Notes: generated by a model from the letters alone, not told the origin. A stretch of 32,000 nt of DNA from Candidatus Iainarchaeum sp. (GCA_028710695.1 JAQTTP010000002.1:30001-62000), one strand, 5' to 3'. Counted from the first letter of the stretch, positions 4,368-26,825 are shown. Translations and numbers: made by a program.

Positions 4368-4712
4368 TTATAGCCTATTATTTTCTTCTTTTTTATTTTC
4401 AAATCTTTTGAATATGTTTTCCTTAACCATATTGAATGCTTCTTCTATATCAATATCCAACTGGTTTGCTAGCCTGCAAGTTCCAAAGAATAAATCTCCA
4501 ATTCCATCCTTAAATGCTTCTTTCCGTTCTTGAATTATTTTTATTCTTTCTTCCTCGCTTTTATATCTTAAAAGCTGAGACATTTCAATCAATTCTTCGT
4601 GCAAGTGATCAAATTTATCTACATTAGGGGTATCTTTCCAGCCATTTCTTTCAGCAAAGTATTTCACTGCTTTTTGCGCATCCTTCATAGTAGTAACTCT
4701 TTCTTGTTCCAT
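4368..4712 (-). CDS. MazG-like nucleotide pyrophosphohydrolase (small all-alpha NTP-PPase)
   Basis: 114 aa. The pattern HLHEELIEMSQ...GDLFFGTCRLANQLDIDIEEA is typical of MazG/YpjD-type domains. Confidence 0.65.
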   Translation of the reverse strand: MEQERVTTMKDAQKAVKYFAERNGWKDTPNVDKFDHLHEELIEMSQLLRYKSEEERIKIIQERKEAFKDGIGDLFFGTCRLANQLDIDIEEAFNMVKENIFKRFENKKEENNRL

Positions 4713-4776
4713 AATATATTACCTAAAGCACAATGTTTTTAATCTATTGGACATATAATTAAACTAAGGGATAACT

Positions 4777-5172
4777 ATGAAAGTTGCAATTATATTGGAT
4801 GACAGTTTAGGACCCGGATTATTGGCTAATTCTTCTGCCTGTATTGCTTCTGGCCTTTTCAATGGCGTAGAAAACGTATTAGGCCCAGAAATAGAAGGCT
4901 ATTTTTTTAAATATATCCCAATAACAAAAATTCCAATTCTAATAATGAAACAGCACAACAGGACTTGGCCAGAATTACTTAAACGTGCTAAAAAATTTAA
5001 ATTAAAATATATGGTTTTTACTCAAGAAGGCCAATCAACTACAAACTACGAAGAATACATAGAAAGAGTAAAAGGAAAGCCAATCGAAGAAGTCAAAGTT
5101 ATAGGTATAGGTGCAATAGGCGAAGATAATGATATACAACGATTCTGCGGAGATCTGCCTTTACTTAGATAA
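4777..5172 (+). CDS. DUF2000-like protein
   Basis: The N-terminus MKVAIILDDSLGPGLLANSSACIASGL matches my recollection of the DUF2000 signature. 131 aa. Confidence 0.45.
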   Translation: MKVAIILDDSLGPGLLANSSACIASGLFNGVENVLGPEIEGYFFKYIPITKIPILIMKQHNRTWPELLKRAKKFKLKYMVFTQEGQSTTNYEEYIERVKGKPIEEVKVIGIGAIGEDNDIQRFCGDLPLLR

Positions 5173-16074: not shown

Positions 16075-16177
16075 AGTTCCACTCCCCTTAACTCTTTGAA
16101 ATATAATTAGTATTTGTTATTCTATAGGCTTTTTGAGAATTTATTCTTTTCTATCGGGGGGCAGAGTAGAAAACTTC

Positions 16178-16213
16178 GCAGGTAGGGACAAAGACTAAAC
16201 CGCAGAGGTTAGG
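16178..16213 (+). repeat. Copy A of a purine-rich ~35-bp repeat
   Basis: GCAGGTAGGGACAAAGACTAAACCGCAGAGGTTAGG. Related copies lie at 17317 and 17680. It contains GCAGRG(G)TAG sub-repeats at 16161, 16178 and 16202. Confidence 0.6.
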
Positions 16214-16229: not shown

Positions 16230-17168
16230 TCATTTTTCCAAAAAAGTCTTAATTTGTTTAAAGTATTGTTCTTTTGAGAATTTTACAAAAAATTCTGGGT
16301 CTTGTTTTTCCGTTGATTTAATAAGACTATCAAAATATTGGCTTCTTTTATCTGAGATATTCATTAATGGAAACCCACAATCCAGCAGTATTTTGTTAAA
16401 AATCAGTCTACAAGTCCTTTTATTACCATCTAAAAAAGGGTGTATTAAATACAACTTGTAATGTGCCAAAACAGATTTTTCTAGAGGATTAAGTTTACTT
16501 CCCCTAACCCAAGCAACAAAATCATCAAGCAACTTAGTTATTTGTTCAGGTTTTGGTGGCTTATAACTTATTTCAATTCCAAGAGGATTTTTTTCATCCC
16601 TTTTGTGAATATATACATCTTTTGTTCTAATTAAACCGGGCGTTTTATTTTCAAATTCTTTCATAGTCAAGGAGTGTAGATCCAATAAATATTTTTTTGT
16701 AAACTCTTGTTTTTTCTTAATTTGCTCAACAGCATCAATCATGTTCTTACTAATCTTTTCTTTAGCGGTTAAACCATAATCTTGTTCATAAGCCCTAGCA
16801 ACATCATCCAAACTAACATCAACATCTTCAGTAGTTAAAGTTGTCAAGGTAAATAAAATTGTTGAGTCAATCTCATATTTTTTTCTCTTTGTTGGACTTA
16901 ATGCCTTGAATTTTTTGTTAAATGCATCTCTAAACAAAAAAGTTCTAATAACATCATCTTTACTTATTAAATTACAACCATATTTTTTACCAGATATTTT
17001 TTCTATTATTTTATCCTTAAAGTCTTCTTCCAGTTCCTTTATCTTTTTATTAGTTGGTTTTTTTAGACCAAGGTATTTGGCAAAGCTTTGCGATTTTGTA
17101 AGAACACGGTAACTTAAATTCAAATAGTAGTATTTTTTTCCAGCCCTAGTTTTTACTTTTAAACCCAT
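16230..17168 (-). CDS. Fic/DOC family protein (inverted paralog of 11628-12566)
   Basis: MGLKVKTRAGKKYYYLNLSYR..., with an identical HPFLDGNKRTCRLIFNKILL and FTLTTLTTEDV. 312 aa from the ATG at 17168. The ORF-track extension to 17216 reads through the operator and is rejected. Confidence 0.85.
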   Translation of the reverse strand: MGLKVKTRAGKKYYYLNLSYRVLTKSQSFAKYLGLKKPTNKKIKELEEDFKDKIIEKISGKKYGCNLISKDDVIRTFLFRDAFNKKFKALSPTKRKKYEIDSTILFTLTTLTTEDVDVSLDDVARAYEQDYGLTAKEKISKNMIDAVEQIKKKQEFTKKYLLDLHSLTMKEFENKTPGLIRTKDVYIHKRDEKNPLGIEISYKPPKPEQITKLLDDFVAWVRGSKLNPLEKSVLAHYKLYLIHPFLDGNKRTCRLIFNKILLDCGFPLMNISDKRSQYFDSLIKSTEKQDPEFFVKFSKEQYFKQIKTFLEK

Positions 17169-17178
17169 AATTATTATA

Positions 17179-17256
17179 TTGGTCCGACAAAAATATAAAT
17201 ATATGTCTGACCACACGTGTGGTCTGACAAATCACACCGCCATTGTTTGACCACAC
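17179..17256 (-). promoter_or_regulatory. Double inverted-repeat operator spanning the TATA box of the second Fic gene
   Basis: Read in the gene's direction: GTGTGGTCAAAC-N16-GTCAGACCACAC|GTGTGGTCAGAC-N16(ATATATTTATATTTTT)-GTCGGACCAA. The core GACCACACGTGTGGTC (17209-17224) is a perfect 16-bp palindrome. Confidence 0.6.
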
Positions 17257-17316
17257 AAGGATTGTACAATTTTTTTATTTTATATTTTTAATTACAAACT
17301 ATAAGGTAATAAAAAT

Positions 17317-17350
17317 GCAGGTAGGGGAAAAAGACTAAATCGCGGGGGTC
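17317..17350 (+). repeat. Copy B of the purine-rich repeat
   Basis: GCAGGTAGGGGAAAAAGACTAAATCGCGGGGGTC. It matches copy A over about the first 26 nt, apart from a 1-nt indel and about 2 substitutions. Confidence 0.6.
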
Positions 17351-17360
17351 ATGCTTATTT

Positions 17361-17587
17361 CGTAATCGTGATTATTATAATCACACTTACGATTTTTACA
17401 AGGGGCCAAAATATGGCGGTTATAATCATAGCCTTTATAAACCTCTGCAGTGCCACTGCACACTTTTACCGGTTTTTGTTCACTGGCAGTGCACACTTTT
17501 TTCGTATTCCTAAACCATTTATAAAGGGTTCTACTGACAGTAGAAGCTTTTGTCTATTGCCAATAGAAACCCCAAGCCCATTCTTGG
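17361..17587. repeat. Cluster of odd-length perfect palindromes and a 14-nt direct repeat in a region that is probably non-coding
   Basis: Palindromes: 17361-17391 CGTAAtcGTGATTATtATAATCACacTTACG; 17447-17459 GCAGTGcCACTGC; 17481-17491 CACTGgCAGTG; 17531-17543 CTACTGaCAGTAG; 17554-17566 CTATTGcCAATAG; 17572-17587 CCAAG-N6-CTTGG. CA(C/G)TGCACACTTTT occurs twice, at 17454 and 17487. Confidence 0.7.
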
Positions 17588-17679
17588 CATTAATTTACCC
17601 ATTTTTTGTCAAGTTTGTAGGCAGTCCCTTAAAACAAAGGAATTTGTGGTGGGGGAAAAGAAAGAAGATAAAAAGACGA

Positions 17680-17713
17680 GCAGGGAAAAAAGGGATAAAC
17701 CGCTTTAGTTAGG
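17680..17713 (+). repeat. Copy C (more diverged) of the purine-rich repeat
   Basis: GCAGGGAAAAAAGGGATAAACCGCTTTAGTTAGG. It shares the GCAGG start, the TAAACCGC core and the GTTAGG end with copy A. Confidence 0.45.
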
Positions 17714-17751
17714 CAAAAAGATAAATAATCCCTACCAGCTAATTATTCAAT

Positions 17752-18165
17752 ATGTTAAAAAATCACCTTTCCGCAAAAGAATTAAACCAAGTTGTAGATT
17801 TAGACAAAGAAGCCCATAAAGAAATTTCATGGTGGAAAAGAACTGGCAAAAAGGATTTCCAGCTTCAAAACAAAGCAATGTTTTTGTATATGATCTATGA
17901 CAAAGACAAGGTTATTGGTTTCATCAGATTATCAGAAGACAAAAGGCGAACCAAACAGAAGACAATATGTATTGAAGACATTTTCATTAAGAAAGAATTT
18001 AGAAAAAGAGGGTATGGAAAGAAAGCACTAAAGAACATAATTTCAGCCCTTAAGAAAGACAAAGTAAAAGTAATAAAAGTCATTGCTCCAAAACAGTTTC
18101 AAAAAAAGCTTTATGAAGCAGTGGGATTTAAGGCCCAATATGTTTGTTTGGATATGAAACTATAA
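17752..18165 (+). CDS. GNAT family N-acetyltransferase
   Basis: 137 aa, with the motif A region IEDIFIKKEFRKRGYGKKALKNII. Confidence 0.8.
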   Translation: MLKNHLSAKELNQVVDLDKEAHKEISWWKRTGKKDFQLQNKAMFLYMIYDKDKVIGFIRLSEDKRRTKQKTICIEDIFIKKEFRKRGYGKKALKNIISALKKDKVKVIKVIAPKQFQKKLYEAVGFKAQYVCLDMKL

Positions 18166-18198: not shown

Positions 18199-19050
18199 TT
18201 ACTTGTTTTCAATAGATAACACTAGATACATAAATGAACCTGTAAGATATAAAATAAATCTGGTTTCTTCACCATAATATTTTTCATTGTGTTTTACATT
18301 TTTGTTTTGATAGTTACAATAATAATTTATTAATTTTGTATATAGTTCTCGTATTTCTACAGACACGCCCTTATCTTTAAGGTAACCCCCAAGACTTTCT
18401 ATTTGGTTTTCTAGAGACTTATCGTTTTTTAATATCTTTTTGAGCAATTGTTCTAATGAAAATCTTAAATCATCCAAAATATTTCGCTCGTCTTTATTGG
18501 TTTCTTGTAGTTTTTTCAAAGCAGATATAAATTGTTTTTGTGACTCAGGATATTTAGTTAGCCACTTTATATCTTGCACCATAATTTCATCTAGCTCTTT
18601 AACCTCCGATGGATACAAAACAATACTATCTGCCAGTTCAACAAAACTAATTTTCAAACCGTTTATTTTTATTGACTTAATTATCAAATCAAAAAAATCA
18701 ACGTAAATTTTACTCCAATATTTATCTTTTTTTTCTTTTTTTAACATAGACAAAAATATCTCTAAACAACGATAAAACTCCAAATAAGAATTGGGGGCAT
18801 CAGAATAGGACAAGTAACTTTTTGACAAATTATGATAAATATGTGTATGGTCTTTAGTTCCAAAGAATGGTACCCTGTATACGATATGCAAATGTCTACA
18901 AAAAAGTTTATCGGCTTCAACAGGGAAAAGATCTGGAAATAAATCATTAAAACCATTTATAACATCCGCCTGAAATGCTGTAAATTTAGAAAAATCGTCT
19001 TTTTTAATTCCAAAACGGTCATTAAAATCAATAGTTAATTTTTCATCCAC
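18199..19050 (-). CDS. Hypothetical protein whose C-terminal helical region is patterned like Abi_C/HEPN
   Basis: GTG start preceded by GAGGAAGTGAAT. The C-terminal DDLRFSLEQLLKKILKNDKSLENQIESLGGYLKDKG...YQNKNVKH follows the Abi_C layout, but a Gln sits where the HEPN Arg is expected. It is the last gene of a four-gene operon. Confidence 0.5.
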   Translation of the reverse strand: MDEKLTIDFNDRFGIKKDDFSKFTAFQADVINGFNDLFPDLFPVEADKLFCRHLHIVYRVPFFGTKDHTHIYHNLSKSYLSYSDAPNSYLEFYRCLEIFLSMLKKEKKDKYWSKIYVDFFDLIIKSIKINGLKISFVELADSIVLYPSEVKELDEIMVQDIKWLTKYPESQKQFISALKKLQETNKDERNILDDLRFSLEQLLKKILKNDKSLENQIESLGGYLKDKGVSVEIRELYTKLINYYCNYQNKNVKHNEKYYGEETRFILYLTGSFMYLVLSIENK

Positions 19051-19074
19051 CTTTTATTCACTTCCTCTTTTTGT

Positions 19075-19431
19075 TTAATACTTAATTTGGTTTATTACTT
19101 TGGTTCTTTGGTTTGGGTTGGCAGGGGTTTGGTTTTTAAATCTTAACCACTGCACATAATTAATATAAACTGTAATAAAAATAAAAACTAGTCCAATTTT
19201 TATTAAAATAATAAAAAAATCACTTATATTAGGTTTCAAAAAATAAGAGATCATTTCAAAGACAAGAAGCAACAATGCAACCATTAAAGATGCAATTACA
19301 CTTTGAACTATCTCTTTTTCATAAACAACAAAAAATCTTTTTTCACCCATAGAATAATTATAAAAGTCATCAAAGTTTGACTTTTTAGTTCCTTTTTCTC
19401 CAAAATTGCATAGTTGTTTTTTGTTTGTCAT
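19075..19431 (-). CDS. Small 2-TM membrane protein
   Basis: 118 aa with two hydrophobic helices (VIASLMVALLLLVFEMISYFL and FFIILIKIGLVFIFITVYINYV). Its ATG overlaps the upstream stop as ATGA. Confidence 0.55.
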   Translation of the reverse strand: MTNKKQLCNFGEKGTKKSNFDDFYNYSMGEKRFFVVYEKEIVQSVIASLMVALLLLVFEMISYFLKPNISDFFIILIKIGLVFIFITVYINYVQWLRFKNQTPANPNQRTKVINQIKY

Positions 19432-20144
19432 GCGAGATCACTACAAATTATATTTTTTACTTTATCATAATAACTTGAATTACCATTTAGCTTTATTTGC
19501 CTTACTGCACCCAATAAAAAATCTGTTGCAATATGTCCACCAATATAATTATAAGTTTCAACTATCGGAAAACAGTCAAAATCTATTGAATTATAAATAT
19601 GCTCTTTTAGGTACGGATTCTTTTTAGGAATAAATGCACAGCCAGAGGACGTCTCAGACAAATCATCTATTGTCACATAAAACTTATTTGACTTTATTTT
19701 AAAAAAGGCCTTATCCACATTGACATAAAAATTGCTACCCCAGAGATTAGATTTATACAAGGACAAGATTTGTTTTTGGAATACATTTAGCTCTTTGCTA
19801 AAAACAGTTTCTCCAGGTCCAACAGGAGCATAAAAAAACAAGGAATTTTCTAATTTATTAAACTTACTTAAAGATAATTCAATAAAACCAGACAAATTTT
19901 CGTTCAACAAGTCAGAAAAATGCAATTTAGGTAATCTTGAATTTATGCTTGGATAATCACAAAGATATTTTTTGCTAAGGTCTGCAGTAATATTTTTTAT
20001 TTTGTCAGCTTCAGAAGTTAATAACATACCAATGTATTTATCTTTTCCAAAATAGGACTCATCAAAGAACAGATCAACTCTATTATAAGCATCGTTAAAC
20101 TTAATTTTATTTAATCTTTCAACTAAAGATTCATTAACCAACAT
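19428..20144 (-). CDS. DUF3800-like protein
   Basis: The N-terminal VDLFFDESYFG resembles the iyiDESG motif, and the C-terminal GGHIATDFLLGAVRQ resembles lqlADliAGai. The ATG at 20144 is preferred; a TTG at 20222 would overlap the upstream gene by 47 nt. Confidence 0.45.
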   Translation of the reverse strand: MLVNESLVERLNKIKFNDAYNRVDLFFDESYFGKDKYIGMLLTSEADKIKNITADLSKKYLCDYPSINSRLPKLHFSDLLNENLSGFIELSLSKFNKLENSLFFYAPVGPGETVFSKELNVFQKQILSLYKSNLWGSNFYVNVDKAFFKIKSNKFYVTIDDLSETSSGCAFIPKKNPYLKEHIYNSIDFDCFPIVETYNYIGGHIATDFLLGAVRQIKLNGNSSYYDKVKNIICSDLA

Positions 20145-20175
20145 TAATTTCACGCCCAGTTCTTCTTTATTAATA

Positions 20176-20955
20176 TTAAGAAATATTATGGTGGTTTGCC
20201 TTTTCAGGCAAAGATATTTCAAAAACGATTGGAAAACTAATTTTTCTATAGCTATTTAATTCTTGCAAAGGTATTTTTACTTCTCCAATCTGACAGGTAA
20301 TCAACATTTTTTTTTCTTTTCTTATATCACAATCTATAAAATAGATATGGTTTTTTTCTTCTTTTACAAATACCCCAAATTGTTTTTTTCTGGACTTTAA
20401 GAAGAGTTCTATAATATAAGGGGGCGCAAATTTCCATTTATGGACAAATAAAAGTTCATAGATTACTGCGATTCCAAAAACAAATAATAAAATTATTTTG
20501 CTATCATAAGTTAATATCGGAGAAAGCATCAATGCTATCATTACTACAGACATAACAAAACAGACAATATAGTGAAACCCTTTTATAAAAAAAACCTTGT
20601 GCCGTATATTTTCAAAATTATTGTGGTCTTTTGGCAAAACAAACTTTGATTTTTTTTTGTTAAAAGTTTTGTTCACTGCATAATAAGAGCAGATCATAGA
20701 CGCGCTTTTATCCCATAATTCTTGAACTTTCCTACGATAGTGTTCTCTAAAAACAATAAAAAGGCAATAAATTACAAAACACATATAAACAAAAATTAAA
20801 TACAATTGGCTATCAACTGCATAATATTGCAGATATTTTAAAAACAAATAATTTATTACCAAAGATAAGCAAAAAGGAAAGATCACTAAACTACAATATT
20901 CGGAGAATCGTTCTGTTCCAAATAAATTAAGAATATCATTAATATTAAATTCCAC
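20176..20955 (-). CDS. 4-TM membrane protein with a ~85-aa soluble C-terminal domain and no recognisable family
   Basis: It has two helical hairpins. The GTG at 20955 lies 8 nt after GAGGAAG, the same GAGGAAGTGAAT box found ahead of 18199-19050. The alternative GTG is at 20964. Confidence 0.5.
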   Translation of the reverse strand: MEFNINDILNLFGTERFSEYCSLVIFPFCLSLVINYLFLKYLQYYAVDSQLYLIFVYMCFVIYCLFIVFREHYRRKVQELWDKSASMICSYYAVNKTFNKKKSKFVLPKDHNNFENIRHKVFFIKGFHYIVCFVMSVVMIALMLSPILTYDSKIILLFVFGIAVIYELLFVHKWKFAPPYIIELFLKSRKKQFGVFVKEEKNHIYFIDCDIRKEKKMLITCQIGEVKIPLQELNSYRKISFPIVFEISLPEKANHHNIS

Positions 20956-20960
20956 GCCAT

Positions 20961-21053
20961 TCACTTCCTCATCAAACTTTCCTCAATAATCTTTTTTTCT
21001 TCTTCAGTCAGATCATAAAGGTTGTAGACTAATTGATCTATTTCATTATCTAT
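20961..21053 (-). pseudogene. 30-codon relic of the C-terminus of an R-M/BREX-type N6-adenine methyltransferase or type IIG enzyme
   Basis: The translation is IDNEIDQLVYNLYDLTEEEKKIIEESLMRK*. It is preceded by an in-frame stop and has no start codon. The IDxLVYxLYxLTEEExxII tail is a common C-terminal signature of such enzymes. Confidence 0.5.
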
Positions 21054-21161
21054 TCATCCAAAACAGTCTTAAATAATATAGTTACAAAAACATTATAAAT
21101 CAAAACAAATAAACTTGACAAAACCGGTTTGTTTTTATGGTTTTCGTCATGTTATGATTTT

Positions 21162-21833
21162 GTGAAGATTAAAGATTTGCCAGAACAAAACAGACCCAGA
21201 GAAAGATTTTTGAAACAAGGCGCAGAAGCCTTAAGTGATGCAGAGCTTTTCGCAATAATTTTAAGAACAGGAACTATAACTGAAAATGTTATTGATATGT
21301 CCAATAGATTAATTAAAGAGTATGGATTAGACAAATTATTTGAATGTTCATTAAAAGAACTACAAAAAATAAAGGGCATAGGTCCAAGTAAGGCAATGCA
21401 GATTTTAGCAATATCTGAATTAGGAAAAAGGCACAATCAATCAAAAAAAACCCTCAAACAGATTTCTTCAGCAAAAGAGGTTTTTAACCTATTTCATGAA
21501 AGATTAAAAGATGAAAAACAAGAAAACTTTTATGTGTTGATGTTAAATAATAAGAATTATATAATTAAAGAAGAATTAATAACAAAAGGAATTCTTGATT
21601 CCACAATCATACACCCAAGAGAAATTTTCAAACCAGCAATAAAGAATTCTTCTGCAAGAATAATTTTAGTACATAATCACCCTTCTGGAGATCCCGCACC
21701 AAGTGAAGAAGATGTAAAAGTAACACAGCAAATCAAAGAAGCTTCAAAGGTTATAGGCATAGAATTAGCAGATCACATAATTATCGGAACAGACAATTAC
21801 TATAGCTTCAAACAAAAGTCTATAGATTTTTAA
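21162..21833 (+). CDS. radC: RadC-like JAB/MPN domain protein
   Basis: VKIKDLPEQNRPRERF...SDAELFAIILRTGT, a HhH region KGIGPSKA, and the JAMM motif HNHPSGDPAPSEED. The GTG at 21162 is preferred. Confidence 0.85.
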   Translation: MKIKDLPEQNRPRERFLKQGAEALSDAELFAIILRTGTITENVIDMSNRLIKEYGLDKLFECSLKELQKIKGIGPSKAMQILAISELGKRHNQSKKTLKQISSAKEVFNLFHERLKDEKQENFYVLMLNNKNYIIKEELITKGILDSTIIHPREIFKPAIKNSSARIILVHNHPSGDPAPSEEDVKVTQQIKEASKVIGIELADHIIIGTDNYYSFKQKSIDF

Positions 21834-21840
21834 TTATAAT

Positions 21841-24150
21841 TCATCGTTCTGAAGAAACTTCAAATAAATGCTTTTGGAAATTAATAAAAGTAGCTCTTAT
21901 TTTATTAACACCGCCAAGTAATTCTGTTGCATCAGTTATTGCAAAATATTTAATTTTCAAAAGGTCAGGCAGTTTCTCTTGATCAAGTTCTTCAATACCT
22001 GTTTCAATATATTTAGACAAAACAAATTCTAAAAATTCTTTCTGATTATTATCTAGCGACTTAAATATATTGGATTGCGCATTAGCAACTCTTTTCTCTC
22101 TTGAAATTGGTCTAATTGCAAAAGAAATATATTCTAATACATCAAATATATCACTATTTTCCGCGTTTATTAATTGCTGCAATGTTTTTAATTCATTCAG
22201 CCCATAGCCCGCACTCGCCAATTTATCAAATAAAGATTTCCTAGTTATAGGATTAGACCAAATTTTACGAAGTTCCGGTTCATTTTTAAAAAAACCAGGT
22301 AATTTTCCGTACAGGTTTTGTAAAAACTCTTCTGCAGAAATTGGTTTTCCGTTTGCACCCCAAAATGATGTCTGAATCATATGTTTAATTTCTCTTTCTT
22401 TTCCATCCGCCAGTTTTATTTTTATTTTTTTCTTTTTTGATTCAGCCTCTAACTCACCATCATAGGTTGCAGACGGTTCTTTTATTATTAAAGACTTAGA
22501 ACCACCCTTTGGTGGTTCTGCTGGATCTAAAGGCTCACCATCCCATTCGGGGTCACTAAAATGGTGATAAGCATCAACAAAATCATAAATTGTAAAAAAC
22601 TCTTTCCCATCAAATAATCTTGTGCCACGCCCGACAATTTGTTTAAATTCTATCATTGAATTAATTGGACGCATTAAGATAATATTGCGAATATTTCTTG
22701 CATCAACACCTGTTGAAAGCTTTTGTGAAGTAGTAAGAATTGTAGGAATAGTTTTTTCATTATCTCTAAATTCTGCTAAATATTGATCCCCTAGTTTACC
22801 ATCGTTAGCAGCAACACGCACACAATAATTTGGTTCTTTGCTTTTCTTATATTGATTAATTAGATCCCTTATTGCCTGGGCATGATTTTGATTTGCACAA
22901 AAAACAATTGCTTTTTCCTTTTGATTAATTTCAGATAATAATATCTTTACTCTTTTTGACTCACGTTCTTTAATTTCAATTATTCTATTGAAATCTGATT
23001 CAATATAACGTTTTCCTTGTTCTACTTCACCCTCAATAACTTTATCATCAGAAGTATAAACATAATCATCCAAAGTTGTTTTAATTCTTCTAACCTTAAA
23101 AGGAGTTAAAAAACCGTCATTAATTCCTTCTTTTAATGAATAAATATACACTGGATCTCCGAAATATTTGTAAGTATCTGCATTTTCTTTTCTTTTAGGA
23201 GTAGCGGTTAAACCTAATTGAACTGCGGGAGAGAAATATTCCATTATCGCCCGCCAATTACCTTCATCATTTGCTCCACCTCTATGACATTCATCAATAA
23301 TTATTAAATCAAAATAATCTTTTGGATATTGCCCAAAATAAGGAGTATTATTTGGACCGCTCATGAATGTTTGAAATATTGTAAAAAATATACTGCCATT
23401 TGTTGGCACATGCCCTTTTTTTCTTATTTCTTCTGGTTTAATTCTTATTAAAGCATCTTCTGGAAATGCAGAAAATTCATTAAAGGCTTGATTTGCTAAA
23501 ATATTTCTATCTGTAAGAAATAATATTCTGGGTCTTCTTGCACCATCTTGTTTTAAATTCCAACGTGTTTGAAAAAGTTTCCAAGCAATTTGAAAAGCAA
23601 TAGTTGTTTTTCCTGTTCCTGTTGCAAGCGTTAATAATAATCTATTTTTTCCTTCTGCAATGGCATCTAAAACTTTATTTGTTGCAATCTCTTGATAAAA
23701 TCTAGGGTCATAAATTCCACCTTTAGGAATTGCATTAAATTTTTCTTTCCAGTCATTTTGAACTCTAAAAGTTTTATTCCATAATTCATCTGGTGTTGGA
23801 AATCTTGTTATTAGCCCTTCTTTACCAGTTTCCATATTTATTTGGTAAATCTCTTTCCCATTTGTTGAAAAAGTGAAATCAATGTGTAATTTTTCTGCAT
23901 AATTTTTTGCTTGAGCAACACCTTCTCCAACTTCAAAACAACTTTCTTTAGCCTCAATAACTGCAAGTTTACGCCCTTTATATGACAATACGTAATCTGC
24001 CCTAAGAGGACTAGCCCTTATATTGCCTGTTTGAATTCTACCTAAAGTAATTGGAAAATTTCTGTTAATTTTAGAACCCTCAATTATGCCCCAACCACTT
24101 TCTTTTAATTTTGGGTCAATAAGTTCTGCCCTAGTGTCATCTTCACTCAT
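21841..24150 (-). CDS. hsdR: Type I restriction enzyme, R subunit
   Basis: The N-terminal nuclease region is MSEDDTRAELIDPKL...VIEAK. Helicase motifs are LATGTGKT and IIIDECHRGG. The C-terminal region is EcoEI_R_C-like. The ATGA overlap links it to hsdS. Confidence 0.95.
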   Translation of the reverse strand: MSEDDTRAELIDPKLKESGWGIIEGSKINRNFPITLGRIQTGNIRASPLRADYVLSYKGRKLAVIEAKESCFEVGEGVAQAKNYAEKLHIDFTFSTNGKEIYQINMETGKEGLITRFPTPDELWNKTFRVQNDWKEKFNAIPKGGIYDPRFYQEIATNKVLDAIAEGKNRLLLTLATGTGKTTIAFQIAWKLFQTRWNLKQDGARRPRILFLTDRNILANQAFNEFSAFPEDALIRIKPEEIRKKGHVPTNGSIFFTIFQTFMSGPNNTPYFGQYPKDYFDLIIIDECHRGGANDEGNWRAIMEYFSPAVQLGLTATPKRKENADTYKYFGDPVYIYSLKEGINDGFLTPFKVRRIKTTLDDYVYTSDDKVIEGEVEQGKRYIESDFNRIIEIKERESKRVKILLSEINQKEKAIVFCANQNHAQAIRDLINQYKKSKEPNYCVRVAANDGKLGDQYLAEFRDNEKTIPTILTTSQKLSTGVDARNIRNIILMRPINSMIEFKQIVGRGTRLFDGKEFFTIYDFVDAYHHFSDPEWDGEPLDPAEPPKGGSKSLIIKEPSATYDGELEAESKKKKIKIKLADGKEREIKHMIQTSFWGANGKPISAEEFLQNLYGKLPGFFKNEPELRKIWSNPITRKSLFDKLASAGYGLNELKTLQQLINAENSDIFDVLEYISFAIRPISREKRVANAQSNIFKSLDNNQKEFLEFVLSKYIETGIEELDQEKLPDLLKIKYFAITDATELLGGVNKIRATFINFQKHLFEVSSER

Positions 24151-25370
24151 ACTAATTCCTCTGTAAGTTCCCCTTTAAAGGCTTTCTGTAAAATTGATTT
24201 TTTTAATTCTTCTAAGTCTACTAATTTCTTTTCGTAAATTTCTTCAAGTTTCTGCGTTTCTGATGAAAAAGCATTGAATTTATCAATGAATTTTTGCTGA
24301 TCAATAATGCTTTTTGGAAATGTCATCTTGATGTTTCTGATTAGTGGCATATTAAGACCACGCCTATCATTGTCAGAGTCACTAGTTATTTTGCGAATTT
24401 CCGTATATCTATTATTTAGATTATGATAAATGTATTCGGGTAATATTTTTTTAATATCTTTTGGATAAATGCTAACAAGAGATTGATTGCAAGTTGCTTT
24501 AGTACGTAGCATTGCAACCGTTCCACGAGTTTTACCTTGACCGTTTAATGCAATGATAATAGAATTAATGGGAAGATATTTTGTACTTGAATTATTCATA
24601 CCTAATTCAGTTATACGTCCTTCGCATTCAAAAATTTCTTTGAGATTTACGTCTCCAGAAACTAACCAGTTTATTTTACCCCCTTCAAAATATTCTTTCT
24701 TAGCTCTGCTTGGAGTTCCGCCAGTCATCAGATCACAAATTTCTCCAATACTTCTCTCGTCCCATCCTTCGCCTTTATTTTTAAAAACACGTTGCAAATA
24801 ACTTTCAAAAATCTCTTTTACATTCTTCAAATTATTTTCTATATTTTCTTTTGCTTTTGCAATACTTTCAAATGCTTTGTTTAAAATGGTGACGATACGT
24901 TTTTGTTCGGGAAGGGGTGGAATTGGAATCTCTATTTCTTTGAATTTATTCATAGAAACCCCCCCAATAAGCCCTGCTAGACTTGAAGAGAATTGTTTTT
25001 GAAATGATGAACTAAAATAGTAATAGAATACATAACGACTTTCAATACTTTTATTCACAGCCAATGCAAATAATTTGTTCCCAAAGCAGACGTCTTGGTT
25101 TGTAAATCCAATTTTTTTTCCAGCACTACCGCCCTCTCCACAAATTAAAACAGTATTTTTTGGTGCTATTTTAAATTGTTCTCTCTCTTCAAAAGGTATT
25201 TTAATGCCATTCTCATAATCAATAACATTCTCATAGCTAACATCTTTAGTAGCTATAAAAGGGTACCCTTCATTTACATTTGTATATTTAACTTTCTTAA
25301 CCGCCTCATTTATGCTGTTGCCATTGTATACTTTTCCAATGTCTCCTAACTTCTTAACTTCCCAAGCCAT
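24147..25370 (-). CDS. hsdS: Type I restriction enzyme, S (specificity) subunit
   Basis: Two target-recognition halves are separated by conserved helical spacers: PPLPEQKRIVTILNKAFESIAKAKEN, and the C-terminal LEELKKSILQKAFKGEL. Confidence 0.9.
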   Translation of the reverse strand: MAWEVKKLGDIGKVYNGNSINEAVKKVKYTNVNEGYPFIATKDVSYENVIDYENGIKIPFEEREQFKIAPKNTVLICGEGGSAGKKIGFTNQDVCFGNKLFALAVNKSIESRYVFYYYFSSSFQKQFSSSLAGLIGGVSMNKFKEIEIPIPPLPEQKRIVTILNKAFESIAKAKENIENNLKNVKEIFESYLQRVFKNKGEGWDERSIGEICDLMTGGTPSRAKKEYFEGGKINWLVSGDVNLKEIFECEGRITELGMNNSSTKYLPINSIIIALNGQGKTRGTVAMLRTKATCNQSLVSIYPKDIKKILPEYIYHNLNNRYTEIRKITSDSDNDRRGLNMPLIRNIKMTFPKSIIDQQKFIDKFNAFSSETQKLEEIYEKKLVDLEELKKSILQKAFKGELTEELV

Positions 25371-26825
25371 TTATAGCAGCCCCTTTATTAGTTTGAGAAT
25401 GTCTGCACTTTCTTTATCGAGTGTTGCTATTTCCCTAAGTATTTCTTGTGGATCTCGAAGTACTGTTTCTTCTTTTTTATTGGGATTCCTTACAGACAAA
25501 TCATAAGTATCAGTGTTTATATCATTAATATTCACAGTCCAAGAATTATCTGAATCGGCTTTAGTCTTTTGTAATTTAACAAATTCTTCTAGATCTTTTT
25601 CGTTTAATGGATTAGTTTTTCCTAAATTTCTATCCAAGTTCAATTGATAATACCAAATCTTTCTAGTAGGAACTCCTTTCTCAAAGAAAAGCACAACTGT
25701 TTTTACTCCAGCCCCTGAAAATGTGCCTTGTGGCAAATCTAAAATAGAGTGTAAATTACAACTTTCTAATAAATACTTTCTTAATGAAACCGAGGCATTA
25801 TCCGTATTTGATAAAAACGTATTCTTAATTACTATTCCTGCCTTGCCTTGTGCTTTTAAAATTTTTATGAAATGCTGCAAAAATAAAAATGCAGTCTCCC
25901 CAGTTTTAATTGGAAAATTTTGTTGAACTTCTACTCTTTCTTTTCCTCCAAAGGGAGGATTTGCTAAAACAATATCATAACGATCTTTTTCTTGTATATC
26001 AGTAATATTTTCTGCAAGAGTGTTTGTATGAATTATATTTGGTGATCCGATGCCGTGAAAAATCATATTCATAATTCCAATAATATATGCTAATGATTTT
26101 TTCTCTTTACCAAAAAAAGTATTTTTTTGTAGTATTTCCAAATCTTTAGTAGTGAGATTTTTACTGTTTTTCAAATATTCAAAAGCTTCACATAAGAACC
26201 CTGCAGAGCCAACTGCACCATCATAAATTTTATTTCCAATTTCAGGAGCTACAACCTTTACAATTGTTTTTATAAGTGGACGGGGTGTATAATATTCTCC
26301 CCCATTTCTACCTGCATTACCCATATTTTGAATTTTTGCTTCATATAGATGGGACATTTCATACTTTTCAGCATTAGAACTAAACCGCAACTCGTCAATT
26401 AAATTAATTACTTCACGTAAGGTATAGCCACTCTGAATCCTGTTTTTTAGTTCACTAAAAATTTCCCCAATTTTATATTCTATTGTGTTTGCACTTTCGG
26501 CGCTCGCTTTAAATTTTTTAAGATATGGAAATAACTTTTGATTAACAAAATCAGTTAGATCATCCCCCGTAAGAGCTTTTTGATGATCTAACTTACCATC
26601 TTTAGTCTTGGGAACCGCCCAGACACCCCATTGAAACTCTGGACTAATGATGCTTACATATGTTTTTCCTGATAATTCCGCAGAAATGTGTTTTTCTTTT
26701 TCCAGATCATCAAGATATTTCAAAAAAAGAATCCAAGAGGTTTGCTCAACATAATCTAATTCGCTGCTACAACCCGCATCTTTTCTAAGAATATCGTCTA
26801 TATTTTTAAAAATTTGCTCAAACAT
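25371..26825 (-). CDS. hsdM: Type I restriction enzyme, M subunit (N6-adenine DNA methyltransferase)
   Basis: HsdM_N-like N-terminus, SAM motif DGAVGSAGFL, and catalytic motif NPPFGG. Confidence 0.95.
   Translation of the reverse strand: MFEQIFKNIDDILRKDAGCSSELDYVEQTSWILFLKYLDDLEKEKHISAELSGKTYVSIISPEFQWGVWAVPKTKDGKLDHQKALTGDDLTDFVNQKLFPYLKKFKASAESANTIEYKIGEIFSELKNRIQSGYTLREVINLIDELRFSSNAEKYEMSHLYEAKIQNMGNAGRNGGEYYTPRPLIKTIVKVVAPEIGNKIYDGAVGSAGFLCEAFEYLKNSKNLTTKDLEILQKNTFFGKEKKSLAYIIGIMNMIFHGIGSPNIIHTNTLAENITDIQEKDRYDIVLANPPFGGKERVEVQQNFPIKTGETAFLFLQHFIKILKAQGKAGIVIKNTFLSNTDNASVSLRKYLLESCNLHSILDLPQGTFSGAGVKTVVLFFEKGVPTRKIWYYQLNLDRNLGKTNPLNEKDLEEFVKLQKTKADSDNSWTVNINDINTDTYDLSVRNPNKKEETVLRDPQEILREIATLDKESADILKLIKGLL

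Follow-up and report, generated by a model that had tools for sequence, protein, structure and literature searches.

PDC systems are 145 candidates, as yet untested, that were recognised by their embedding in loci of BREX, DISARM and type I restriction-modification (R-M) systems (bioRxiv 10.1101/2024.01.29.577857), and most of them still await validation (PMC12988326). DUF3800 has been described as an RNase H2-like domain that carries DE and QxxD motifs and serves type VII retrons as their effector (PMC7736814), as an RNase H fold that shows a catalytic rearrangement and has a link to Cas12a2 (PMC10910872), and as an accessory nuclease of class 2 CRISPR (PMC12669027). Some Cas12a2 and type VI-F loci have DUF3800 as an accessory. 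In DPANN archaea, defence is reported to rely on compact single-gene systems (PMC12988326). The subject of the present analysis is a cluster of four genes, g1 to g4 (proteins PHH82_01750 to PHH82_01765), located in a 32-kb stretch of DNA, hereafter the window, from a 124-kb contig of a metagenome-assembled genome of Candidatus Iainarchaeum (Iainarchaeota, a DPANN archaeon). A sequence-only reading of the window had proposed these genes as one undescribed defence module. The cluster is ordinary cargo of a defence island, with new members of known candidate families, and is no recurring four-part system. It is probably a lineage-specific mosaic, in which two independent single-gene candidate immune families (g2 and g4) stand beside two orphan membrane proteins (g1 and g3).

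The cluster and the recurrence of its genes

Conserved synteny was sought around the relatives of g4 and g2. A total of 95 g4-family loci were covered, 84 of these (with 6-8 kb flanks) being searched by tblastn with g1-g3 and 11 further places being inspected. With five g2-family loci for the four g2 relatives, the tblastn searches extended across 89 loci in all. The g1, g2 and g3 queries gave nothing better than an E-value of 0.8 in the 84 g4-family loci, no relatives of these three genes were seen in the 11 further places, and g1, g3 and g4 found nothing in the five g2-family loci. Hidden homologs of g1, g2 or g3 among the neighbours of g2 and g4 relatives were also considered, with both BLASTP and tblastn being negative. 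Since none of these approximately 100 loci holds a relative of any second cluster gene, the homologs occur singly and without conserved synteny, and the proposal of a single four-gene module is not upheld. An existing defence-system model does cover part of the cluster, namely g4 (PDC-S32), but not the remaining three genes. Operon-like tight packing inside a defence island is insufficient for calling a multi-gene system, for which synteny must recur.

The four minus-strand open reading frames (ORFs) are all present as first read (Table 1), with a gap of 31 nt between g1 and g2, a 4-nt ATGA overlap between g2 and g3 and a gap of 24 nt between g3 and g4 (ORF list and sequence). They are four real genes in one direction. 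At approximately 28% GC, chance is very unlikely to leave 118-283 codons free of stops, with about 0.2 ORFs of at least 118 codons expected per window and far fewer still for longer ones (own estimate). The GC content of the cluster, approximately 27-28%, is slightly lower than the window average of approximately 30-31%. Given the tight co-directional packing, g1-g4 are probably co-transcribed, and the position of the g3 ATG within the g2 stop suggests translational coupling of these two genes. A longer TTG-start ORF for g2 extends to 20222; the N-termini of its homologs favour the ATG as the start. No paralogs of g2 or g4 were found elsewhere in the window.

The GTG starts of g1 and g4 had been described as lying behind an identical box, and this is the case. 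The 12-mer GAGGAAGTGAAT has exactly two copies in the 32 kb, before g1 and before g4 (two matches were obtained in no shuffle), with the first GTG of g1 lying inside its copy. NCBI and Logan gene calls place the g1 start at the second GTG (20955), giving a protein of 259 aa, and with this start both g1 and g4 follow the arrangement of box, 3 or 5 nt, and GTGGA. The GTGA(A/T) within the box is a Shine-Dalgarno-like element, which is also found ahead of g2, of g3 and of many further genes of the window.

Relatives of g4, g2 and the membrane proteins

The product of g4 matches the PADLOC model for PDC-S32 (PDLC04998) with an E-value of 1.2e-40 and 138 bits, residues 96-277 aligning to profile positions 52-229 of 237. 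The earlier statements that it matched no named system and was undescribed therefore do not hold for this gene. Scans of Pfam, NCBIfam and PHROGs gave no significant match, and no mention of PDC-S32 itself was located in the texts or supplements of papers. The family has 51 homologs in the word-indexed protein database and is present in 102 GTDB species genomes, 80 of which were listed and form the basis for the statements on taxonomy and neighbours made here. Among these listed matches all 80 are bacterial. With g4, a known candidate family that is widespread in bacteria gains an archaeal member.

Alignments and the structural model show g4 to consist of a variable N-terminal half, a middle part with helices and a beta-hairpin, and a conserved C-terminal helical domain (approximately residues 165-283). 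In the alignments residues R189, D193, R196, E200, N209, K211, Q248, N249 and K253 are invariant and H254 is nearly so. The AlphaFold2 (AF2) model has a predicted local distance difference test score (pLDDT) of 76, with values above 90 for the C-terminal helices. The QN-x4-H motif (YQNKNVKH) noticed at the outset is real and family-wide, lying in conserved columns, with Q248 being invariant, and never R, in 41 sequences. The all-helical C-terminal domain, with its conserved x-N-x4-H near a helix end, resembles HEPN/Abi_C proteins, and two of 41 family members weakly match DUF4145 (E-value approximately 0.009), a member of the HEPN clan. Unlike in HEPN proteins, the Rx4-6H motif reads Y-Q-N-x-N-V-K-H in g4, with glutamine replacing the defining arginine. 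An assignment of g4 to HEPN/Abi_C, the layout first ascribed to its C-terminal helices, was rejected, as Pfam, a PDB sequence-profile search and the top 50 Foldseek structures all failed to support it and the R of the motif is always Q.

Like the PDC-S32 family in general, g4 has the invariant C-terminal residues, adjoins R-M genes as do several relatives, and can be seen as a single-gene unit without an obligatory partner, which fits the heterogeneous neighbours of the 80 GTDB relatives. It differs in being the last of a four-gene string that is adjacent to R-M genes and not embedded in an intact R-M operon, in having an N-terminal segment of approximately 95 aa outside the model match, and in its host, a DPANN archaeon, the listed relatives being bacterial.

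The contexts of the g4 relatives vary, the gene standing alone, next to or within R-M-like operons, or in a pair with an AAA_14-DUF4143 ATPase. A family gene (4450-5160) on the Lactobacillus amylovorus plasmid NZ_CP104880.1 (locus L091, 1734-8322) has a 908-aa DNA methyltransferase on one side and a DEAD/DEAH helicase with a GIY-YIG nuclease on the other, its codons overlapping or abutting those of its neighbours, and it is clearly embedded in an R-M-like operon. A g4 homolog (L002-4) lies downstream of hsdRMS and DUF5655, and another (L001) is inside an island of ResIII, N6_N4_Mtase and toxin-antitoxin genes. In Aggregatibacter, Haemophilus and Capnocytophaga, short-form proteins of approximately 244 aa are encoded 10 nt behind an ATPase of approximately 435 aa with AAA_14 and DUF4143 domains (loci in Table 1), an arrangement with the appearance of a two-gene sub-architecture within the PDC-S32 family. 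In a Pfam census of the genes directly flanking the 80 GTDB relatives, there were AAA_14-DUF4143 ATPases (three), integrases (three), HsdR (one) and many housekeeping genes. The family as a whole has no recurrent partner gene in these 80 loci. The same census showed that taking the upstream neighbours of approximately 400-460 aa for HsdS was wrong, these being AAA_14-DUF4143 ATPases, integrases and housekeeping genes. It should also be mentioned that the unannotated phage record OR846638.1 (a 16.6-kb Enterococcus phage) has a tblastn match to the C-terminal domain of g4 at 1542-1901 (E-value 4e-9, 36% identity), and the g4 family can therefore be phage- or prophage-borne.

The second gene with relatives is g2. 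It appeared as an orphan in the word-indexed protein search. An exhaustive phmmer search of 1.84 billion representative proteins retrieved four full-length relatives with 27-32% identity (E-values 6e-19 to 3e-7), making a subfamily of five members among these proteins. No relatives were found in metagenome and viral-contig scans or by tblastn against plasmids and phages. The five-member alignment has D28, E29, H75, D78, D144, D208 and R215-Q216 as invariant residues, in the columns FFDE, LHFxD, D144 and D208..GAxRQ, and the two motifs first pointed out in g2, FFDESYFG and ATDFLLGAV, are both present in family-invariant columns.

The call of g2 as DUF3800-like stands in the sense of a divergent relative, on the grounds of motif, transitive hidden Markov model matches and fold; it does not reach the formal Pfam threshold. 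g2 itself has no Pfam match even at an E-value of 10 or below, and nothing significant was found in NCBIfam or PHROGs. All four homologs match DUF3800 (PF12686) at 15.4-17.8 bits against a cutoff of 21, over positions 2-148 (three of them) or 28-148 (one) of 149. The AF2 model of g2 (pLDDT 82.8, predicted template modelling score 0.86) has one significant match in BFVD, a phage 'DUF3800 domain-containing protein' (E-value 1.5e-4, probability 1.00, TM-score 0.44), followed by RNase H, resolvase and integrase folds. In the PDB only weak matches to EndoV, integrase and RNase HI were obtained. Taken with the predicted structure, these comparisons support g2 as a very divergent DUF3800 relative, and from the alignment it appears to retain an intact acidic site. 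It shares with DUF3800 the N-terminal DE (FFDES), a C-terminal Asp in a helix, a length of approximately 240 aa and the predicted fold. The Q of QxxD is replaced in g2 (GHIATD) and kept in its four homologs, with D208 being invariant. Retron-linked DUF3800 proteins also lack this Q (PMC7736814). Unlike for described DUF3800 genes, the surroundings of g2 contain no reverse transcriptase, CRISPR array or DUF3800-associated RNA listed in Rfam.

Two g2 relatives (in L088 and L089) are solitary between opposite-strand genes. One g2 relative adjoins an integrase, and a tyrosine integrase gene (111-1337) lies in the same locus as the relative in L086. In L090, a 155-aa ORF (1467-1934) shares 11 nt with the start of the g2 relative P0057 and carries FRNQFAH, an Rx4H HEPN-like motif. 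A recurrent pair of DUF3800-like and HEPN-like genes was considered on this account and rejected, as the 155-aa protein gave an hhalign probability of 0.2% against the g4 family and has no Pfam or PADLOC match.

As for g1 and g3, hydropathy windows (Kyte-Doolittle) confirm the membrane topologies given to them by the sequence-only reading. The g1 product has four transmembrane (TM)-like segments (approximately residues 23-45, 49-75, 123-147 and 153-177) with a soluble C-terminal tail of approximately 85 aa, and the 118-aa product of g3 has two (approximately 44-66 and 71-94). In the word-indexed search of 5.8 billion proteins g1 matched itself only; Pfam, PADLOC, NCBIfam and PHROG gave no match, and plasmid, phage and viral-contig searches found no relative. 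g3 forms a singleton cluster. Viral contigs, plasmids, phages and JGI metagenome contigs (the last searched for g3 only) hold no relatives of it, and scans of Pfam, NCBIfam and PHROGs returned nothing significant. Its weak match to the PADLOC '2TM' effector (PDLC00686, E-value 0.002, 15.7 bits) is one that hydrophobic composition alone could drive.

Explanations of the cluster

If the cluster is a mosaic, the block would once have stood downstream of a type IIG R-M gene, of which 30 terminal codons survive, and g2 and g4 would be independent accessory immune genes. g2 may act as an effector that cleaves nucleic acids, with g3, the 2-TM protein coupled to it, possibly tethering or modulating it. 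g4 would form a module by itself, as a single polypeptide whose variable N-terminal half would confer specificity and whose conserved C-terminal helical domain would serve as a constant effector or partner-binding surface; the putative polar face of this domain would comprise R189, D193, R196 and E200 together with Q248, N249, K253 and H254.

Several points weigh against the mosaic. No PDC-S32 member has been experimentally shown to be antiviral, most GTDB relatives of g4 have housekeeping genes as immediate neighbours, and type I R-M genes lie within 6 kb in only approximately four of 80 g4 loci (L006, L043, L050 and L076; crude tblastn). Remote homologs of g1 and g3 could exist, and their orphan status is provisional because the g1 search was word-indexed and the g3 scans covered close relatives only, both being less sensitive than a profile search. 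Small multi-TM ORFs adjoin g2 relatives in three of four contexts (Table 1), and could hint at a recurrent theme of nuclease and membrane partner that is beyond the reach of sequence searches. These neighbours have no sequence similarity to g1 or g3 (BLASTP, tblastn), and may represent a background rate in small-genome lineages, small TM ORFs being common in such genomes. Lastly, a single functional unit would likewise agree with the tight packing, the g2-g3 ATGA overlap and the 12-nt box that g1 and g4 share, and there is one instance only of the cluster.

Such a unit would be a lineage-specific abortive-infection system in which the membrane proteins g1 and g3, the nuclease g2 and the sensor or effector g4 are all required. 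It would explain why four genes of one strand are spaced by 31, -4 and 24 nt, with the identical box ahead of the first and last of them, and would accommodate the weak '2TM' effector match of g3, the TM ORFs beside g2 relatives in L086, L089 and L090 and the position in a defence island. We regard this as quite improbable, given the absence of conserved synteny in the approximately 100 loci, the solitary g2 relatives of L088 and L089, the modelling of the g4 family by PADLOC as a single-gene candidate and the dissimilarity of the TM neighbours, ORFs of a kind that is generally common in small genomes, to g1 and g3; the box, in addition, is largely the usual GTGA-type ribosome-binding element of the organism. 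A related version, a membrane-anchored abortive-infection operon restricted to DPANN, with coupled g2-g3 together with g1 and g4 and with an original translational coupling to a gene of type IIG R-M, is very unlikely. If true, it would combine two families known to date only as single genes into a multi-component architecture that is new.

The genes may alternatively include no defence effectors at all, g4 then serving R-M-like enzymes as an accessory that binds DNA or acts as an adaptor (for instance a controller or specificity helper) and g1-g3 being unrelated DPANN 'dark matter'. The middle part of g4 is a helix-helix-beta-hairpin in the model and weakly matches the winged helix-turn-helix antitoxin AbiEi (PADLOC, E-value 0.002), one homolog is named 'transcriptional regulator TrmB' at source, and several homologs overlap methyltransferase start or stop codons; the housekeeping neighbours of many relatives and the lack of family matches for g1 and g3 also agree with it. 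However, conservation in g4 peaks in the C-terminal helical domain and not in the putative winged helix, the ten invariant or nearly invariant residues of that domain are mostly polar or charged, more like a catalytic or ligand site, most family loci are without any R-M gene, and DUF3800 proteins have been repeatedly linked to immune systems (PMC7736814, PMC10910872, PMC12669027). We consider this explanation unlikely. That the block is the decaying remnant of a mobile cassette or of a destroyed R-M locus, its genes no longer functional, we hold to be highly improbable. The adjacent type IIG gene is indeed reduced to 30 codons, GC is lower in the cluster than in the window, a g2 relative lies beside an integrase and 33-nt direct repeats bracket the neighbouring SoFic gene, but all four ORFs are intact and each has a ribosome-binding element, every family-invariant residue is kept in g2 and g4, and at 28% GC unselected ORFs of this length would soon gain stop codons.

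The cluster brings an untested PDC-S32 candidate together with a DUF3800-type nuclease in one DPANN archaeon, a member of a group with poorly known defence. It delimits a tiny and very divergent DUF3800 subfamily of five members, and defines testable invariant residues in g2 (D28, E29, D144, D208) and in g4 (R189, R196, Q248, N249, H254). Its practical use is as a pointer for work on PDC-S32 or stand-alone DUF3800 genes, and it is no new immunity class.

The surrounding defence island

A defence island extends from 16.2 to 26.8 kb, since SoFic, RadC, type I R-M and methylase relic genes lie there (Table 1). The position beside radC, hsdMSR and a methylase relic, as originally described, is confirmed by Pfam and PADLOC and, in the case of the relic, supported by tblastn.

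Table 1. Coordinates of the cluster, its repeated box and the neighbouring genes in the window, followed by features in the loci of relatives
Feature	Location	Strand	Evidence and remarks
g1	20176-20964	-	ORF, 262 aa, first GTG start; PHH82_01765, annotated 259 aa; membrane protein
g2	19428-20144	-	ORF, 238 aa, ATG start; divergent DUF3800-like, predicted RNase H-fold nuclease
g3	19075-19431	-	ORF, 118 aa, ATG start; 2-TM protein
g4	18199-19050	-	ORF, 283 aa, GTG start; PADLOC PDC-S32 candidate family
GAGGAAGTGAAT box 1	20959-20970	-	Contains first GTG of g1 ORF; 3 nt before second GTG
GAGGAAGTGAAT box 2	19056-19067	-	5 nt before g4 GTG start
Type IIG methylase relic, Eco57I/TaqI_C-type, last 30 codons (IDNEIDQLVYNLYDLTEEEKKIIEESLMRK and stop)	20961-21053	-	Translation, tblastn
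RadC-like JAB protein	21129-21833	+	Pfam RadC 1.6e-46, UPF0758_N 2.7e-28; divergent from cluster
Type I R-M operon, complete	21841-26825	-	Transcribed hsdM-hsdS-hsdR; Pfam and PADLOC
hsdM	25371-26825	-	PADLOC MTase_I 1e-158
hsdS	24147-25370	-	PADLOC Specificity_I 1.5e-57
hsdR	21841-24150	-	PADLOC REase_I 2e-131
GNAT acetyltransferase	17752-18165	+	Pfam Acetyltransf_1 1e-13; convergent with g4, 33-nt gap
Fic-domain protein	16230-17216	-	Pfam Fic 9.8e-19; PADLOC SoFic 1.6e-28; other island edge
AAA_14-DUF4143 ATPase and short g4-family gene	L092-L095 (4609-6735), L013, L017, L019		
Small 2- to 5-TM ORFs beside g2 relatives	L086 2342-2722, 3695-4276; L089 430-987, 1857-2342; L090 172-543		

The relic peptide IDNEIDQLVYNLYDLTEEEKKIIEESLMRK has tblastn matches in 40 plasmid records, the best with an E-value of 1e-3 and most from 0.06 to 5, and no match among PDB sequences. 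Those matches that are annotated are named as Eco57I methylase, TaqI-like C-terminal specificity domain, N-6 DNA methylase, other DNA methyltransferase or restriction endonuclease; the best is a 'hypothetical protein' only, and several others are without annotation. The single E-values are weak, and the concordant annotations support a reading of the peptide as the remnant of a type IIG methylase. The relic ends in a TGA that overlaps the first GTG of the g1 ORF (GTGA, 20961-20964), which suggests from the sequence that g1 was formerly translationally coupled to the lost type IIG R-M gene, and the cluster was probably attached to this gene before its loss.

In abutting the type IIG relic and having a type I R-M operon at a distance of 0.9 kb, the cluster resembles genes identified by their embedding in R-M loci (guilt-by-embedding, Payne et al. 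2024). It differs in that the partner type IIG gene is destroyed and RadC stands between the cluster and the intact type I system, the latter relation being for this reason adjacency to type I R-M rather than embedding. The longest radC ORF has a TTG start and approximately 12 extra residues (MFLWFSSCYDF; window 21129-21165) ahead of the UPF0758_N match, which begins at residue 14. The true radC start probably lies further downstream, and the g1-radC intergenic region would then be approximately 200 nt.

At the other edge, the SoFic-like gene is flanked by imperfect direct repeats of approximately 33 nt (16176-16209 and 17316-17349) of the form GCAGGTAGGG..AAAGACTAAA.CGC.G.GGT, none being expected by chance. 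Either a small cassette with att-like ends or a common regulatory element could account for them.

DUF3800 genes associate with diverse non-coding RNAs (ncRNAs). Searches for such DUF3800-associated ncRNAs gave no Rfam match at the gathering score in the window or at an E-value of 5 or below within 16-22 kb. Between the Fic and GNAT genes there is a 535-nt stretch (17217-17751), 1.7 kb from g2, which has few ORFs, is GC-richer and contains a strong hairpin (17360-17392), twin CAGTGCCACTGCACACTTTT / CACTGGCAGTGCACACTTTT elements at 17448 and 17481 and three TGACCACAC-like repeats (17196-17260). The stretch has no Rfam match and, for either strand, an RNA fold z-score of about -2.2; it may encode an ncRNA that is as yet unclassified, or serve in regulation.

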